Origin: Halodesulfurarchaeum sp.
GTDB taxonomy: Archaea > Halobacteriota > Halobacteria > Halobacteriales > Halobacteriaceae
Reading direction: 5' to 3'
DNA length: 64,000 nucleotides
NCBI GenBank assembly: GCA_042216015.1
Contig: JBDGUI010000013.1
Span: forward strand, 22,838 to 86,837
Shown here: in pieces, positions 18,945 to 64,000 of the stretch
How positions within the stretch are numbered: the stretch's first letter is position 1
Layout: each line of letters begins with the position of its first letter
Translations under genes and position numbers: made by a program
The notes under the pieces: model-generated
Told to the model about the DNA's origin: nothing
Database searches by the model: none
What the model saw: the letters and a program-made list of their open reading frames with translations, nothing else

Positions 18945-19017
18945 GGGCCGGTGGGGTAGCTTGGTATCCTTCGGCCTTCGGGTGGCCGTAACCGCGATTC
19001 AAATTCGCGCCGGCCCA
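18945..19017 (+). tRNA. tRNA-Pro (anticodon CGG)
   Basis: Cloverleaf: acceptor GGGCCGG/CCGGCCC, anticodon arm CGGCC-TTCGGGT-GGCCG, T-loop TTCAAAT; GTTAAA box upstream, TTTTT tract downstream; CCA not encoded. Confidence 0.95.
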
Positions 19018-22034: not shown

Positions 22035-23150
22035 ATGCCGCCGGAGACCTCCGAGGAGTTGCCCTCGCCCGAGGCCCTCCAGTCGGTCTTCCGGGTCTAC
22101 GAGGTGACGCAGGACGGCGAGGGCGTCCACTACTACGGCGATCCCCTCGTGAACCAGCAACAACTCCTCGAGGCCGTCTGGCCGCAGTTCCGCGAGGCCG
22201 GCTATGAGGTGTCCCTAAGGCGTCGGCTGGGCGAGTTCGTGCTCGTGGCCAAGCCCCGCGAGACCGGCGAGGACGGCATTCCGTGGACGAACATCGGGTT
22301 GGCCCTCTTGACCGTCCTCTCGACGCTCTACGTGGGGACGAGGTGGTACTACGTTCAGGACCCCCTCTCGCTGGAACTGCTCGATGCCGTGCCGTTCACG
22401 CTCGCCGTGATGGGAGTCCTCGGCACCCACGAACTCGGCCACTACGTCATGAGCCGCCATCACGACGTCCCGGCGTCGCTTCCCTATTTCATCCCGTTCC
22501 CCTCGGTCATCGGGACGATGGGGGCGGTGATCCGCATCCGCGGCCGGATCCCGGACCGCCGGGCGCTCTTCGACATCGGCGTGGCCGGACCGCTCGCCGG
22601 GCTCGTCGCGACGGTGATCGTCACCGCGATCGGACTCTCGCTCCCGCCGGTGTCGGTCCCGGACTGGATCTTCGCCGCCGGATCGACGGTGGAGATACAG
22701 TTCAACTACCCGCCGCTTTTGACGGGCATCGCCTATCTGCTCGGCGAACCGCTCTCCTATGCCGACCCGCGGCTCGTCGTGAATCCGGTCGTGATCGGCG
22801 GCTGGGTCGGGATGTTCATCACGTTCCTGAACCTGATCCCGGTCGGCCAACTCGACGGCGGCCACATCCTCCGGGCGATCGTCGGACCCGCCCAGGAGCG
22901 GGTTGCGCCGCTGATTCCGATCGCCCTGTTCTCCCTCGCCGCGGGGCTCTATCTGTTCACGGACGCGGGCCAGATGGTCGGGGTCTGGGTCCTCTGGGGG
23001 TTCATGGCGATGATCGCGACCTACATCGGGAGCGCGGCGCCGATCGCGGAGGAGCGACTCGATCCCCGGCGGAAGGCACTCGGCGTCCTGACCTTTCTGC
23101 TCGGGTTGCTCTGTTTCACGCCGATCCCGATCGAAATCATCGGCCTGTAG
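22035..23150 (+). CDS. Site-2 protease (peptidase M50)
   Basis: HELGH, AGPLAG, NLIPVGQLDGGH. Confidence 0.92.
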   Translation: MPPETSEELPSPEALQSVFRVYEVTQDGEGVHYYGDPLVNQQQLLEAVWPQFREAGYEVSLRRRLGEFVLVAKPRETGEDGIPWTNIGLALLTVLSTLYVGTRWYYVQDPLSLELLDAVPFTLAVMGVLGTHELGHYVMSRHHDVPASLPYFIPFPSVIGTMGAVIRIRGRIPDRRALFDIGVAGPLAGLVATVIVTAIGLSLPPVSVPDWIFAAGSTVEIQFNYPPLLTGIAYLLGEPLSYADPRLVVNPVVIGGWVGMFITFLNLIPVGQLDGGHILRAIVGPAQERVAPLIPIALFSLAAGLYLFTDAGQMVGVWVLWGFMAMIATYIGSAAPIAEERLDPRRKALGVLTFLLGLLCFTPIPIEIIGL

Positions 23151-24145: not shown

Positions 24146-24601
24146 ATGGCAACTCTCTACGACGCCCCTGCGGACGAGCTCATCGCGGCGCTCGCCGAGG
24201 AGCTCGCCGAGCGACTCGAGGAGCCCGACTGGGCCACGTACACGAAGACCGGCGCGAGCCGGGAACTCCCCCCCGAACAGGAGGACTTCTGGGCCACCCG
24301 CACCGCGAGTGTCCTTCGAAAAGTGGCGATGAACGCCCCGATCGGCGTGGAGCGCCTCTCGACGGCCTACGGTGGCACGAAGGACGGCTCGAACCGCTAC
24401 GAGGTCGCGCCGAGCAAGCGCAGCGACGGCTCACAGAAGATCCTCCGCGAGATTCTCCAGGACCTCGAGGAGGAGGGCCTGATCATGACTCGCGACGGTG
24501 AAGGCCGGGACATCACGCCCGAGGGCCAACAGCTCCTCGACGAGACCGCCGGCGAGGTCATCGAGGCGCTCGACGATCCGGCTCTCGAGCGCTACGCCTA
24601 A
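24146..24601 (+). CDS. rps19e: 30S ribosomal protein S19e
   Basis: PDWATYTKTGASRELPP, FWATRTAS, GRDITPEGQ. Confidence 0.96.
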   Translation: MATLYDAPADELIAALAEELAERLEEPDWATYTKTGASRELPPEQEDFWATRTASVLRKVAMNAPIGVERLSTAYGGTKDGSNRYEVAPSKRSDGSQKILREILQDLEEEGLIMTRDGEGRDITPEGQQLLDETAGEVIEALDDPALERYA

Positions 24602-24657
24602 TTTTCGACTGCCGCTTTTTCGACCGCTGGGTTCGGTTTCATCGCACCAGCCGAAGG

Positions 24658-24798
24658 TTTATCAGCAAAAACCGGGCCAGTCCGGTTCATGCCCTAACCC
24701 GACGCCCGGATCGGTTCGCGGGAGTGCGACGACCCGATTCGGCACGATTCAGTCGCCTGTTCGCCCCGTCTCGTCCCGTTCGCCGACCGAACCCGATC
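24658..24798 (+). ncRNA. Copy A of a dispersed TATA(-31)/ATG-CCC-TAA element (putative small transcript)
   Basis: TTTATC at 24658, ATGCCCTAA at 24689-24697; sequence similarity to copies at 38018-38159 (-) and 45187-45337 (+). Confidence 0.55.
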
Positions 24799-26077
24799 AG
24801 GTGCCCTGCTGCCAGCTGTCCATGTACTCCTGCTGGGTCGGAGTGAGCTCGTCGATCGCGATGTCCTCGGCCTCGAGCTTGATCTCTGCGACCTCCCGGT
24901 CGAGTTCGTCGGGGACCTCGTGGACACCGGCAGCGTAGTCCTCGCCGTTCGTGACGAGTTCGCGGACACAGACGGCCTGGATGCCGAAGCTCTGGTCCAT
25001 GACCTCGACGGGATGGCCGAGCGAGACCGGGCTCGCCAGGTTCACCAGCCGTCCCTCGGCGAGTACGTTGATCCGGCGTCCGTCCCGCAGTTCGTACTCC
25101 CGGATGCCGTCACGGACTTCGGACTCCGCCACGGCGAGTTCGGACAGACCCTCGAGGTCGATCTCGACGTCGAAGTGGCCGGCGTTTGCCAGCACCACGC
25201 CGTCTTGCATCCGCTCGACGTGCTCGGGTGTGATTATGTCCCGGTTGCCGGTGGTGGTGATGAAGACGTCACCCTTTTCGGCAGCGTCGGCCATCGGCAG
25301 GACCTCGTAGCCCTCCATGTGGGCCTCGAGGGCTCTGCGGGGATCGATCTCGGTGACGACGACCGAGGCGTTCTGGCCCGAGGCCTTCCGGGCGACGCCG
25401 CGACCACACTGGCCGAAGCCCGCGACCACGACGGTCTTTCCGGCCCAGGAGAGGTTCGTCGTCATCGCGATGCTCGAGAGGGAAGCCTCCCCCGTGCCGT
25501 GGACGTTGTCGAAGAGCCGCTTCATCGGCGTGTCGTTCACGGCGAAGACCGGATACTCGAGCGCGCCGTCTTCGTCCATCGAGCGGAGCCGGTGGACGCC
25601 GGTGGTCGTCTCCTCCGAGCCGCCGACGATCGAGTCGATCAGCTCCGGGTGTTTCTCGTGGATGCGGAAGACCAGATCCCCGCCGTCGTCGACGGTGATG
25701 TCCGGCTCGTGGCCGATCACGGCCTCGATGGCGTCGTAGTAGCCCGTTTCGTCGACGCCCCGCTCGGCGTAGGAGGTGATTGCATCGTTCGCGTCGAGGG
25801 CCGCGCTCACGTCGTCGTGAGTCGAGAGCGGGTTGCAGCCAGTGATGGCGATCTCCGCCCCGCCGGCGGCGAGCGTTTCGACGAGCGCCGCGGTCTTGGC
25901 CTCGACGTGGAGGGCCATCCCGATGGTGTAGCCTGCAAAGGGTTGTTCGGCCTCGAAATCGGCTCGGAGGGACTGGACGATCGGCATGTGCTCGAACGCC
26001 CAGTCGATCTTCTTTCGGCCGTCGGCGACGGCCCCATCGACGTCGGAGAGTCGGTCACTGATCGGAGAAGCGGTCAT
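24797..26077 (-). CDS. ahcY: Adenosylhomocysteinase
   Basis: [49 protein letters not shown]. Confidence 0.97.
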
Positions 26078-35975: not shown

Positions 35976-37970
35976 GTGAGCACCCGGACCGAGGCCCTCG
36001 ACGCCCTGGTCTTCGGCGTCGACGTGCAGAGCGGCGACGTGCGCGGGGACACGCCGTCCTATGCGCTCTGTGTCTTCGACGGGAAGCCGGTGGAACGGAC
36101 GACGGTGAGCTATCACAACCTCCTCCGGCGGATTCAGGACGTCGAACCCGATCTCGTCGCGACGGACAACATGTACGAACTGGCGGCGGACAAGGACGAC
36201 CTCGTTCGCTTTCTCCAGCGTCTGCCGGCAGAAACCACGCTCGTCCAGGTGACCGGCGACGAACGGCCGGAACCCCTCTCCCGGGTGGCCAACCGGCATG
36301 GCGTCCCGTACGACACGGACCCGATGGCCGAAGCCGAGGCCGCAGCGCGGCTCGCGGCGCGGAACGTCGGCTCCGCCGTTCGGGCCTTCGCCGATCGCAC
36401 GACGGTGAAGATCTCGAGAGGGCGCTCGATCGGGAAGGGCGGATCGAGCGAAGATCGGTACACCCGCCGGATCCACGGCCACGTCAAGACCGAGGCCCGA
36501 CGCGTGGAGTCCGCCCTCGAGGAGGCCGGACTGGAGTTCGAGCGGGAGGTGACCGAGAAGTACGGCGGTTTTTCGAACGCGGTTTTCACGGTCGAGGCAC
36601 CGGTGAGCGAGATTCCCGTGTCCGCCGGCCGCTCGGGTGACACCAGAATCGAGATCGAGCCGGTCGAGCGCGATGGCATCGACTTCCAACCGCTCGTGAC
36701 CCGGCGAGACAGGGTCTTCGTCGGCGTCGACCCCGGCACGACGACCGCCGTGGGGATCGTGGACCTCGACGGGAATCCACTTGCGACCTGGCACAGCCGG
36801 ACCGCCGACAGGGCCCGGGTCATCGAGTGGATCATCGAGCGCGGGCAGCCGGTGCTCGTTGCCGCCGACGTGACGCCGATGCCCGAGACCGTCGAGAAGA
36901 TCCGGCGGAGCTTCGACGCGGCGGCCTGGACCCCCGCGACGGACCTGCCGGTCGACGAGAAGCTTCACCGGACCCGCGAGGCGGCGACGGCGAACGACCA
37001 CGAGCGGGACGCTCTCGCCGCGGCGCTTTACGCGTTCGACGCCCACGAGGAGACGATCGAGCGAGTCGTCTCGAAGGCGCCCCGGACGGCCGACCGGGAG
37101 GCGGTCGTTGGCCGGGTGATCAAAGAACAAACCTCCGTGGAGGCGGTCCTCAGGGAACAGGAGGAGACCCAGGCGGAATCGGACACCGAAACGGAGTCGG
37201 AACCCGCCGAACCGAGCCCCGAACAGCGTCGGATCCGCGATCTCGAAACACAGGTCGAGCGACTCCAGTCCCACGTCGAGGATCTCAAGGGCCGCCTCGA
37301 CGAGAAGGACGCGACCATCGAGGATCTCCAGGACCGGCTCACCGAGGCCAAGCGCGAGGAGCGAACCGAGGCCCGCGCCCGCCGGGAGGTCTCGAGGCTT
37401 CAGTGGGAGACCGATCGGTTGGAGGCCGAACTCGAGGAGGAGCGCCGTGCGCGCGAGGACCTCGAGGGGAAACTCGAGCGGCTGAAGGAACTCTGGAAGC
37501 TCGATCACTCGAACTTCCCCGACGTGGACCAGTCCGGCGATCTCACCCCGGTCAAGGTGGTCGAGAAGTTCACCGTCGAGGCGATCGAAGCCACCCACGA
37601 GACCTACGGAATTGCGGCCGGGGACGTCGTCTACCTCCGGGACGCCTCCGGGGCTGGCCGTCGGACGGCCGAGCGGCTGGTCGAGTTCGAACCGCGGCTC
37701 GTCGTGCGGAACGGCGGGATCTCGGACGTGGCCGACCGATTGCTCTTCGAGAACGAGGTCCCCCTGGCTCCGGCCGAACTGGTGACGATCCAGGAGGTCG
37801 ACGAGCTGGCGGTGGCCCGCGAGGCTGACGTCGAGGCGGCGATCGAGGACTGGGAGGACCGGGCCGCGGAGCGCCGCCGCTCACGGAATGCCGAAATGGT
37901 CGATCAACTCATCTCCGAGCACCGGGCCGACCGGCGGGACGCCGACCCGAGCGAGTTGCTCGATTCCTGA
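35976..37970 (+). CDS. DUF460 family protein (RNase H-like domain plus coiled coil)
   Basis: VATDNMYEL, GGSSEDRYTR, VGVDPGTTTA, NDHERDALAAA; GTG start inferred. Confidence 0.85.
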   Translation: MSTRTEALDALVFGVDVQSGDVRGDTPSYALCVFDGKPVERTTVSYHNLLRRIQDVEPDLVATDNMYELAADKDDLVRFLQRLPAETTLVQVTGDERPEPLSRVANRHGVPYDTDPMAEAEAAARLAARNVGSAVRAFADRTTVKISRGRSIGKGGSSEDRYTRRIHGHVKTEARRVESALEEAGLEFEREVTEKYGGFSNAVFTVEAPVSEIPVSAGRSGDTRIEIEPVERDGIDFQPLVTRRDRVFVGVDPGTTTAVGIVDLDGNPLATWHSRTADRARVIEWIIERGQPVLVAADVTPMPETVEKIRRSFDAAAWTPATDLPVDEKLHRTREAATANDHERDALAAALYAFDAHEETIERVVSKAPRTADREAVVGRVIKEQTSVEAVLREQEETQAESDTETESEPAEPSPEQRRIRDLETQVERLQSHVEDLKGRLDEKDATIEDLQDRLTEAKREERTEARARREVSRLQWETDRLEAELEEERRAREDLEGKLERLKELWKLDHSNFPDVDQSGDLTPVKVVEKFTVEAIEATHETYGIAAGDVVYLRDASGAGRRTAERLVEFEPRLVVRNGGISDVADRLLFENEVPLAPAELVTIQEVDELAVAREADVEAAIEDWEDRAAERRRSRNAEMVDQLISEHRADRRDADPSELLDS

Positions 37971-38017
37971 GGTTCGAGTGGCGGATCGAACAGGTGGCCT
38001 GCAGGAACTGGCGGTCT

Positions 38018-38159
38018 CCGGAACGGTGGGCCACACCCGGCAGGGGAACGGGAATGATCGCAGGAGCACGCCTGCCGCGGTCGGAAAATCCGCTCTCGCG
38101 AACCGTTCCGGGCGACGGGTCAGGGCATGGGGCGAGATGGTCAGGTTTTCGTACTTGAA
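38018..38159 (-). ncRNA. Copy C of the dispersed TATA(-31)/ATG-CCC-TGA element
   Basis: Minus strand TTCAAG at 38159-38154, ATGCCCTGA at 38128-38120, then CCCGTCGCCCGGAACGGTTCGCGAGAG; 10-bp inverted repeat 38018-38027/38102-38111. Confidence 0.55.
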
Positions 38160-45186: not shown

Positions 45187-45337
45187 TTTTTCTCCGATGA
45201 CCGGGCCAGTCCGGCTCATGTTCTGAGCACTGGCCCGGGGCGATGCGCGGCTGCAAGCGATGACGCTTGCCGGTGAGCCTGCCCGCTCGCCGGTGTGACT
45301 CCTCGTCTCGGGTTCTTCATTCGGTCACCTGCTCGCC
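45187..45337 (+). ncRNA. Copy B of the dispersed TATA(-31)/ATG-TTC-TGA element, hairpin-rich
   Basis: TTTTT at 45187, ACCGGGCCAGTCCGGCTCATG matches copy A at 20 of 21 nt, ATGTTCTGA at 45218-45226. Confidence 0.5.
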
Positions 45338-45366
45338 AAAACGTGGGCAAAATTGCTACCAGAAAG

Positions 45367-63105: not shown

Positions 63106-64000
<895 letters not shown>

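Follow-up and report, generated by a model that had tools for sequence, protein, structure and literature searches.

Genomic Locus of the Element

The 64,000-nucleotide (nt) stretch considered here, referred to as the window, spans positions 22,838 to 86,837 of contig JBDGUI010000013.1 within the 1.68-Mb assembly of Halodesulfurarchaeum sp. Three of its intergenic regions carry copies, designated A, B and C, of one short element, in which a promoter-like box lies exactly 31 nt upstream of an ATG that is followed by a single sense codon and a stop codon. The element is one of a family of small structured RNAs present in many copies, all with a promoter-like sequence of their own that is placed for a start at the ATG or GTG. 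Such a family had been proposed in the initial annotation of this DNA, and both covariation and the promoter profile now bear it out; the shared layout of the three copies and all of the coordinates given for it were also correct.

Copy A lies on the forward strand. Its promoter comprises a CGAA resembling the transcription factor B recognition element (BRE) at 24652–24655 and a TATA-like TTTATC at 24658–24663, 31 nt 5′ of the ATG. A conserved GGGCCA box (24674–24679; −15 to −10) is located between the TATA box and the start. The RNA is 79 nt long (24689–24767), has the A of the ATG as its predicted start, and is matched by the covariance model of the family, R1, at 84.8 bits (E 2.3e-16). It opens with the segment ATG CCC TAA C (24689–24698), which is conserved and unpaired and has the consensus RUG-NNC-URA-C; the start–X–stop motif itself, ATG CCC TAA, occupies 24689–24697. 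This is followed by the 5′ strand of helix a, CCCGGATCGG (24705–24714, partner 24734–24743), the conserved and unpaired loop 1, TTCGCGGGAGT (24715–24725, consensus YCGCGGGWGY), and the 5′ strand of helix b, GCGAC (24726–24730, partner 24752–24756). The 3′ strand of helix a, CCGATTCGGC (24734–24743), pairs in the same way in the minimum free energy (MFE) fold of copy A, and the 3′ strand of helix b, GTCGC (24752–24756), lies 3′ of it. The RNA closes with the tail CTGTTCGCC (24757–24765); conservation stops 2 nt further on and no T-run follows. A different stem, between GATCGGTTCG and CGAACCCGATC, had been suggested for copy A. The letters of the two can pair, but GATCGG is part of helix a, for which the covarying partner is CCGATTCGG at 24734–24742. 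That stem is rejected because it uses half of helix a together with a non-conserved partner.

Copy B, also on the forward strand, has a TATA-like box TTTTTC (45187–45192) 31 nt 5′ of its ATG. Its RNA is 122 nt long (45218–45339), begins with ATG TTC TGA from 45218, and scores 43.3 bits with R1 (E 1.1e-6). Read in the family register, helix a is formed by 45234–45243 with 45303–45312 and helix b by 45295–45299 with 45324–45328, after which the tail occupies 45329–45337. An insertion of 42 nt in loop 1 (45251–45292) contains a hairpin of its own, and the MFE fold of copy B consists of helix a and this inserted hairpin.

Copy C is on the reverse strand, with a TATA-like box TTCAAG (38154–38159) again 31 nt 5′ of the ATG. 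The RNA measures 146 nt (37983–38128), starts with ATG CCC TGA from 38128, and gave 33.8 bits (E 1.9e-5) when R1 was searched against the locus. Helix a pairs 38111–38102 with 38027–38018 and was seen independently as a perfect 10-nt inverted repeat. Helix b pairs 38033–38029 with 37999–37995, the tail runs from 37994, and the loop-1 insertion is approximately 56 nt. The conserved RNA is thus 79, 122 or 146 nt in the three copies, in place of the length of roughly 110 nt that had been estimated. R1 was made without B and C, and this check with a covariance model matched A, B and C end to end.

Over the first 36 nt, a recount confirmed 32 identities between A and C, and in the 21-nt stretch that closes with the ATG, A and B share 20. 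With blastn-short against the whole assembly, A and C matched at 30/33 positions (E 5e-5) and A and B at 20/21 (E 0.013). The likeness of A and C is therefore beyond chance, while that of A and B is marginal when taken alone. All three copies fall within 21 kb (24689–45339).

As had been observed, a convergent gene lies ahead of each copy and has its 3′ end towards the RNA. For copy A this is an adenosylhomocysteinase gene on the reverse strand (24797–26077), whose stop codon lies 29 nt past the RNA end. Its identity is given by the Pfam domain AdoHcyase on the orthologue in genome G009, and the window protein is 87–88% identical to its matches in G002, G004 and G011. Copy B faces a class-I tRNA-ligase gene. 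Copy C faces a DUF460 gene on the forward strand (36492–37967, open frame from stop to stop), which ends 15 nt from the 3′ end of the RNA. Syntenic orthologues of copy A are found 3′ of the adenosylhomocysteinase gene in G001, G008, G009 and G010; copy C has orthologues in G001, G008 and G009. Searches of relatives with the regions of A and C returned many non-syntenic copies as well.

Promoter and RNA Structure

In a 31-copy alignment the unit is conserved from the BRE/TATA box to CCTGTTCGCC. The promoter and 5′ end were profiled over 137–142 unique copies. Among 142 of these, the BRE-like motif has C at −37 in 76% and A at −35/−34 in 44–58%, and the TATA box (−31 to −26) has T at −30 in 93% with A or T at −28/−27. 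The GGRCCA box at −15 to −10 is marked by G−15 (74%), G−14 (72%), C−12 (66%), C−11 (87%) and A−10 (62%). Position −1 is C in 79%, and position +1 is a purine in all copies. The centre of the TATA box, at about −28, lies at the distance given for most Haloferax volcanii promoters in the available part of a differential RNA sequencing (dRNA-seq) table (PMC4983044, supplement 2).

The RNA is about 80 nt long. Its 5′ single-stranded segment of 15–17 nt consists of RUG-NNC-URA-C and about six variable nucleotides, with A or G at position 1 in all copies, U2 in 99%, G3 in 91%, U7 in 92%, R8 in 98% and A9 in 96%. After this segment come, in order, the 5′ strand of helix a, loop 1, the 5′ strand of helix b, 2–3 nt, the 3′ strand of helix a, loop 3, the 3′ strand of helix b and the tail. 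Helix a has 10 bp, and its 5′ strand begins at nt 16–18 in 105/126 copies; helix b has 6 bp. As the two helices cross, with the strands in the order a5′, b5′, a3′, b3′, the fold is a pseudoknot of the H type.

Loop 1 is 11–14 nt long and contains the conserved CGCGGGWGY (YCGCGGGWGY), in which GCGG is near invariant; it is also the site of the insertions in B and C. Loop 3 is variable and mostly 7–12 nt. A subfamily in alignment A5, which holds the copies of genome G157 and others, has CGAGGCGGG in loop 1 instead of YCGCGGG. The consensus of the 3′ tail is CUGUUCGCC. Several copies have CUGCAAGCC, CUGUCAGCC or CUGCCAGCC in its place, so that the true tail consensus is CUG-NNN-GCC. Neither a T-run nor a conserved terminator was found downstream of the tail by comparison of the flanks. 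A scan for promoters and terminators of the bacterial type was likewise empty, as is to be expected in an archaeon.

The pseudoknot is carried by covariation. Both alignments used for this were made with MAFFT and fitted to no structure. Over 24 sequences, 96.7% of the cells pair, compared with 35–47% when the strands are slid against each other; 11/15 pairs are doubly changed, and 0/500 shuffles reach the observed value. Over 126 sequences, 91.4% of the cells pair versus 32–50% when slid, double changes occur in 15/16 pairs, and 368 compensatory cells are seen where 105 are expected. In this larger set, 87.5% of the cells of helix a pair and all 10 of its pairs are changed on both sides, while helix b has 97.9% of its cells paired and 5/6 pairs doubly changed. 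The MFE folds of A, B and C each include helix a. An all-against-all scan of the columns found no helix beyond a and b; for the 5′ segment, loop 1 and the tail, though conserved, it gave no covarying partner.

Two further pairings were considered and dropped. The 5′ segment was examined for pairing with loop 3, with loop 1 and with the tail; permuted controls were exceeded only slightly, and only by nt 2–6 with loop 1 (31 versus 18.2 ± 3.3). This pairing was set aside because no column-wise covariation accompanies it, and the signal probably stems from relatedness. Pairing of the GGRCCA box with helix a was unconvincing, with perfect 6-mers in 24/137 copies versus 16.4 ± 3.5 when permuted.

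The strand of the RNA was read from the excess of G-U pairs over A-C mismatches. With the register set by Watson–Crick pairs only, and hence strand-symmetric, there are 68 G-U pairs to 27 A-C mismatches; on alignment A5 the numbers are 105 and 48. Together with the direction of the promoter, this excess identifies the RNA strand as the promoter strand.

Family Size and Distribution

The covariance model R1 was built from 24 typical copies. In the Halodesulfurarchaeum genome it finds eight copies at E ≤ 4e-5, A and B among them, to which C is added by the locus search. The genome therefore has at least nine copies, and not the three initially counted. The six other copies are on five other contigs (C25:12953, C22:14146, C18:29749, C2:77898, C27:11230 and C19:26484).

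Among the genomes searched, the family is found only in the order Halobacteriales. R1 matches occur in 67/151 Halobacteriales genomes, with 1–26 per genome, and in 27/59 genera; of the genomes at least 90% complete, 55/99 have a match. G157, searched alone and without the stricter filters, has 27 copies, all on its main contig. Every one of the 22 genomes of the genus Haloferax contains a copy, 21 of them two and one three. In a phylum-wide sample, 0/132 genomes of other orders gave a match, and all nine positives belonged to the same order. A scan of named genomes for the exact pattern gave 50 loci, in Halodesulfurarchaeum, Haloferax, Haloarcula, Halobaculum, Halolamina, Halosimplex, Halobellus, Halorientalis, Natronomonas and others. 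One locus of this pattern, L091, sits on an 18.5-kb contig binned as a betaproteobacterium (metagenome-assembled genome: Rubrivivax sp.); a haloarchaeal contig placed in the wrong bin is a likelier source than a copy in a bacterium.

Two complete genomes of the window’s own genus, G002 and G011, have no copy. The intergenic region between the S19e and adenosylhomocysteinase genes of G011 is only about 70 nt long; it keeps CAGCCGAAG, identical to the 9 nt in front of the TATA box of copy A.

The paralogues of a genome are diverged. Identity has a median of 53% over the 26 aligned copies of G157 and of 54% over six copies of the Halodesulfurarchaeum genome. This marks the paralogues as old and under selection for the fold. 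The closest pair, at 82%, is a tandem in G157 (L162 and L163; G157:C1 2563390–2563477 and 2564423–2564517). The two lie 1 kb apart on the same strand. No other duplication seen is clearly recent, and the pair suggests local duplication as the source of new copies.

A family of this kind might be taken for a non-autonomous mobile element, resembling a miniature inverted-repeat transposable element (MITE) or a short interspersed element (SINE) with an outward promoter, or for the pseudogene stubs of a longer gene starting with Met-Pro; both had been raised for the three loci. The copies are indeed multiple, dispersed and patchy, down to the two complete genomes of the same genus that lack them, and both A and C have a short inverted repeat in their flanks. 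Over the family, however, flanking inverted repeats are found in 20/137 copies versus 17.9 in permuted controls, so that there is no excess of them. No target duplication was seen when filled and empty sites were compared 3′ of the adenosylhomocysteinase gene, which is empty in G011 and G004. Paralogues are about 53% identical and the 82% pair is a tandem duplicate, while a copy is present in all 22 Haloferax genomes. The plasmids of PLSDB gave one weak, chance-level match, in Streptomyces, and phages and viral contigs gave none, so that no haloarchaeal copy was found in any of the three. Neither a transposase nor a Cas domain was detected among 70 neighbouring proteins. In respect of pseudogene stubs, the changes in the helices are compensatory and not codon-like, and a longer open reading frame (ORF) in the frame of the ATG is not a feature of the family. 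Both explanations are considered extremely improbable.

Comparison with Known RNA Classes

With Rfam 15 at gathering thresholds, the only match in the whole window is small subunit (SSU) rRNA. When the region 24600–24830 was searched at E up to 10, three chance-level matches of 11–13 bits were returned, against thresholds of 40–50. Likewise, no description of the family was found in the literature searched, which included the main texts of two motif surveys from the Breaker laboratory (PMC5737381, PMC2864571) and of two 2026 bioRxiv preprints. The earlier statement that the element was undescribed thus stands, and the class appears to be new by sequence and structure. The rRNA in the window is an archaeal 16S rRNA gene at 63106–64000, of which the 5′ 897 model positions are present before the window end cuts it; a tRNA-Pro(CGG) gene is located at 18945–19017.

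The geometry of the promoter is that of leaderless haloarchaeal mRNAs. The BRE/TATA element is centred about 28 nt before the ATG or GTG, and from this geometry of the sequence the transcript should begin with the start codon. Unlike such mRNAs, the family has a frame of two codons and a majority of GTG, evolves downstream by compensatory pairs, and has no start recorded at the two copies of H. volcanii in the available part of the dRNA-seq table, which covers one growth condition.

The two-codon bar minigenes of phage lambda and the tRNA-sequestering CreT RNAs of Haloarcula offer a different likeness, as in each case a tiny ORF on a small RNA would engage the translation machinery, if it has any effect, and would not act through its peptide. 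CreT reportedly has a Shine–Dalgarno site and rare codons and lies beside creA inside cas loci. In contrast, codon 2 of the family is usually a common one, and no Cas domain was found in the 70 neighbours.

Crossing helices with a conserved loop 1 are also seen in H-type aptamers and recoding pseudoknots, such as the SAM-II, preQ1-II and fluoride riboswitches and viral signals for readthrough or frameshifting. As in recoding pseudoknots, the pseudoknot of the family starts 7–8 nt after the stop codon. The family differs from these in that it has no Rfam match, mostly no co-oriented downstream gene and no conserved extended frame. A cis-acting riboswitch or 5′ leader was rejected on the finding that a co-oriented gene lies downstream in only 19/69 copies. 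Bacterial riboswitch-controlled antisense RNAs share with the family a structured 5′ domain on a transcript that points into a convergent gene. The family, in contrast, has 2–27 copies per genome beside unrelated genes, with no evident ligand and no evident terminator/antiterminator.

Repetitive extragenic palindromic (REP) sequences and MITEs are similarly short, multicopy and mostly located in intergenic regions at gene tails. Unlike them, the family lacks terminal repeats, near-identical copies and copies on haloarchaeal plasmids and viruses, and it has a promoter and strong covariation.

Box C/D small RNAs are defined by a C box, RUGAUGA, and a D box, CUGA, which form a kink-turn. Only CUGA, at nt 6–9, is present in the consensus of the family, with no RUGAUGA and no match to an Rfam C/D model, and this class was rejected. 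A guide RNA was rejected as well, given that positions 11–16 and loop 3 differ among seven orthologues located 3′ of the adenosylhomocysteinase gene.

The Start–X–Stop Motif

The start–X–stop motif was counted in 137 copies scoring at least 30 bits. The pattern is real and strongly kept: start and stop are both present in 123/137, the start only in four, the stop only in six and neither in four. Loss of the start is statistically linked to loss of the stop (Fisher p 9e-4, with no correction for relatedness). GTG forms the first triplet of 83 of the 137 copies and ATG that of 44, and the third is TGA in 116, TAA in 13 and TAG in none of 129 stops. Codon 2 is free, with 29 variants, although it is mostly ACC, CGC, CGT, TCC or CCC (the commonest being ACC, 32, and CGC, 19). 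Position 4 is G in only 4%, while position 6 is C in 70%. In one copy, L031, the ATG is directly followed by TGA, in frame.

The composition of the motif argues that it is at least in part an RNA motif, and its translation is at most putative. This reading is drawn from the sequence, namely from the majority of GTG, the absence of TAG, the near-exclusion of G at position 4 and the C at position 6. Since TAG occurs in 0/129 stops, position 9 is constrained as A and not as what any stop codon would allow.

The same motif can be read as a landing site for the ribosome. The 5′ AUG or GUG of the leaderless RNA would recruit a ribosome, and the stop at codon 3 together with the GC-rich pseudoknot would hold or release it. 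Such an RNA could be a decoy or trap for ribosomes, or could sense the status of translation by way of one codon. Joint retention of start and stop in 123/137 copies, their associated losses and the freely varying codon 2 agree with this, as does L031, in which ATG-TGA is still in frame. The spacing is also suitable, as helix a begins at nt 16–18 in 105/126 copies and the spacer between stop and pseudoknot is 7–8 nt. The free 5′ segment is about the length that an initiating ribosome covers downstream of a start codon in the P site, and a spacer of 7–8 nt between stop and pseudoknot resembles that of viral recoding signals. Leaderless translation in Haloferax, however, strongly prefers AUG, and GTG exceeds ATG in the family by 83 to 44. 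TAG is never the stop, positions 4 and 6 are biased as in an RNA motif, six copies have the stop without the start, and the second copy of H. volcanii reads ATT CTG TGA. Ribosome docking of this type, in either role, is rather improbable.

Genomic Setting of the Copies

The ORFs next to the copies were called by a heuristic based on the GC content of third codon positions (GC3), and the counts that follow include orthologous loci. The downstream neighbour is convergent in 34/43 copies and in a further 16/26 copies of one genome, which amounts to 50/69 copies with a called neighbour. In 41 of these 50 the convergent neighbour is within 55 nt of the RNA end. When the tRNA genes of the Halodesulfurarchaeum genome were scored in the same manner, as a small control, 9/16 were convergent and none closer than 76 nt. 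The remaining 19/69 copies have a co-oriented downstream gene; none of A, B and C is among them.

The convergent genes include those of adenosylhomocysteinase, CtaA, a signal-peptide peptidase, a MiaB-like protein, HAD hydrolases, UvrC, MoaC, the His- and Leu-tRNA ligases, a DUF460 protein and others. Many of the flanking genes serve translation or RNA/DNA metabolism, namely those for S19e, S17e, the Leu-, His- and Tyr/Trp-tRNA ligases, MiaB-like, Elp3-like and aCPSF-like beta-CASP proteins, NFACT, an SRP54-type GTPase, RFC and PolD. This may reflect only stable housekeeping neighbourhoods. A shared HAD neighbour was considered and rejected, as the HAD genes that adjoin the RNA in Haloferax and the Halodesulfurarchaeum genome share only 28% identity and are not orthologues.

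The orientation of the copies could mean that they are distributed cis-antisense switches. The pseudoknot, at the 5′ end, would then be the sensor or handle of a transcript that, where permitted, reads on, antisense to the convergent 3′ end, and all genes with the element at their tail would be co-regulated. In favour of this are the 50/69 convergent copies, the 41/50 within 55 nt and the tRNA control with 9/16 and none below 76 nt. The tail is followed by neither a T-run nor a conserved terminator. An oxidative-stress transcript of H. volcanii, described below, extends 59 nt beyond the element and enters the tail of the convergent gene. A fold of the H type with conserved loops is, furthermore, typical of small-ligand aptamers. 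Against this, the convergent genes have no common function, and the HAD genes of Haloferax and the Halodesulfurarchaeum genome, at 28% identity, are not orthologous. A co-oriented gene is faced by 19/69 copies, and the counts themselves include orthologous loci and rest on ORFs from the GC3 heuristic. An 11-nt gap separates the end of the convergent mRNA from the element in H. volcanii, so that the two RNAs need not overlap. On balance, this reading is unlikely.

Transcripts around the Copies of Haloferax volcanii

Contig 1 of genome G164 is collinear with the H. volcanii chromosome used in published work, as the 70-nt string given there for a start site at CHR 2560249 (Rev) matches exactly. 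Copy 1 of this species lies at G164:C1 2560328–2560408 on the forward strand. Copy 2, also on the forward strand, runs from 2697532 to approximately 2697637, reads ATT CTG TGA and has an insertion in loop 3. According to a table of 3′ ends, the convergent mRNA stops 11 nt short of copy 1 (PMC7237163).

In a four-condition transcript table (PMC6490895), opposite-strand transcripts are found on both sides of both copies. The downstream pieces of these begin exactly 11 nt upstream of the predicted +1 (G164:C1 2560317 and 2697521; loci L075 and L164), within the GGCCAG box. No primary start is listed at 2560317 or 2697521 in the available part of the H. volcanii dRNA-seq table (PMC4983044). The boundary may be a processing site or an exonuclease block. 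A constant gap on both sides of the copies had been considered as well; its 3′ side proved to be an artefact of an incomplete model match on copy 2, and the coincidence at −11 on the 5′ side stays.

In a further reading, the opposite strand is the functional one. The element would in that case be a structured 3′-untranslated region (3′-UTR) or terminator module, co-transcribed with the abutting gene, and the “promoter” would be a by-product. The orientation of the copies and their closeness to the stop codon of the neighbour fit such a module, and the opposite strand of A and B shows a hairpin with TTTTT after it. The opposite-strand transcripts that flank both H. volcanii copies, with an 11-nt boundary at which the available part of the dRNA-seq table lists no primary start, would fit as well. 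However, the ratio of G-U pairs to A-C mismatches, 68 to 27, favours the promoter strand, and the AT-rich block matches a BRE/TATA element in composition and spacing. T at −30 (93%) would be an A on the opposite strand, so that no U-tract results, and the A-rich stretch from −21 to −18 has only about 50% A per position. C(−1) and R(+1) are conserved, and in 19/69 copies no co-oriented gene precedes the element on that strand. A functional opposite strand is accordingly regarded as very unlikely.

Proposed Function and Significance

The reading preferred here is that the family comprises genes for a structured non-coding RNA (ncRNA), whose conserved fold and loops act on a common partner and which is probably under conditional control. 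The probability of this is put at roughly 0.55. Each copy is self-contained, with a BRE/TATA element at −37 to −26, a GGRCCA box at −15 to −10 and predicted transcription from the purine that forms the first base of RUG. All copies would perform one job by binding the common partner, be it a protein, the ribosome or a small ligand, and the many copies would supply dosage or differential control. The GGRCCA box is a candidate operator that would keep the genes off under standard growth.

The pattern of conservation is central to this reading. Positions 4–5 and 11–16, loop 3 and the sequences of the helices vary even between orthologues, while loops, tail and fold are retained throughout. As the variable parts are not kept in orthologues and the fold, loops and tail are, the same job for all copies is inferred, and not a set of sequence-specific guides or a peptide gene.

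Several observations weigh against a common-partner RNA. The near-universal RUG-NNN-URA is not accounted for by it, and tight placement at convergent 3′ ends is not needed by an RNA that acts purely in trans. The 70 neighbouring proteins show no recurrent family and thus no candidate partner. The folding energies of A, B and C are unremarkable relative to shuffled sequences (z = +0.37, −1.19 and −0.14). In H. volcanii, the available part of the dRNA-seq table, which covers one growth condition, lists no start at CHR 25603xx or 26975xx (PMC4983044, supplement 2), and the four-condition table has no forward-strand transcript over either copy (PMC6490895, supplement). The sole trace is an assembled forward-strand transcript of 657 nt (2559810–2560467) from an oxidative-stress sample, which covers copy 1 and appears in a list of oxidative-stress small RNAs (PMC5892119, file 1). 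Silence under standard growth would, however, fit a repressed promoter.

It is also conceivable, although distinctly doubtful, that the family is a dedicated ribosome-docking RNA that captures ribosomes without making protein and is induced from a repressible promoter, either for sequestration in times of stress or as a one-codon test of translation capacity. If true, this type of translational regulator would have no described counterpart in any domain of life. A start–X–stop at the 5′ end with a pseudoknot at footprint distance would let leaderless initiation for a non-protein purpose be tested directly.

As a class of structured RNA, the family is of interest in its own right. Apart from the universal classes, archaea have few known classes of structured ncRNA, and hardly any of these is confined to haloarchaea. 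The class described here is well defined, with a clear promoter, a pseudoknot backed by hundreds of compensatory changes and up to 27 old paralogues per genome, and its three strongly conserved unpaired motifs may mark a binding surface. With two copies only in the genetically tractable model H. volcanii, a double knockout, pull-downs and structure probing would be straightforward.

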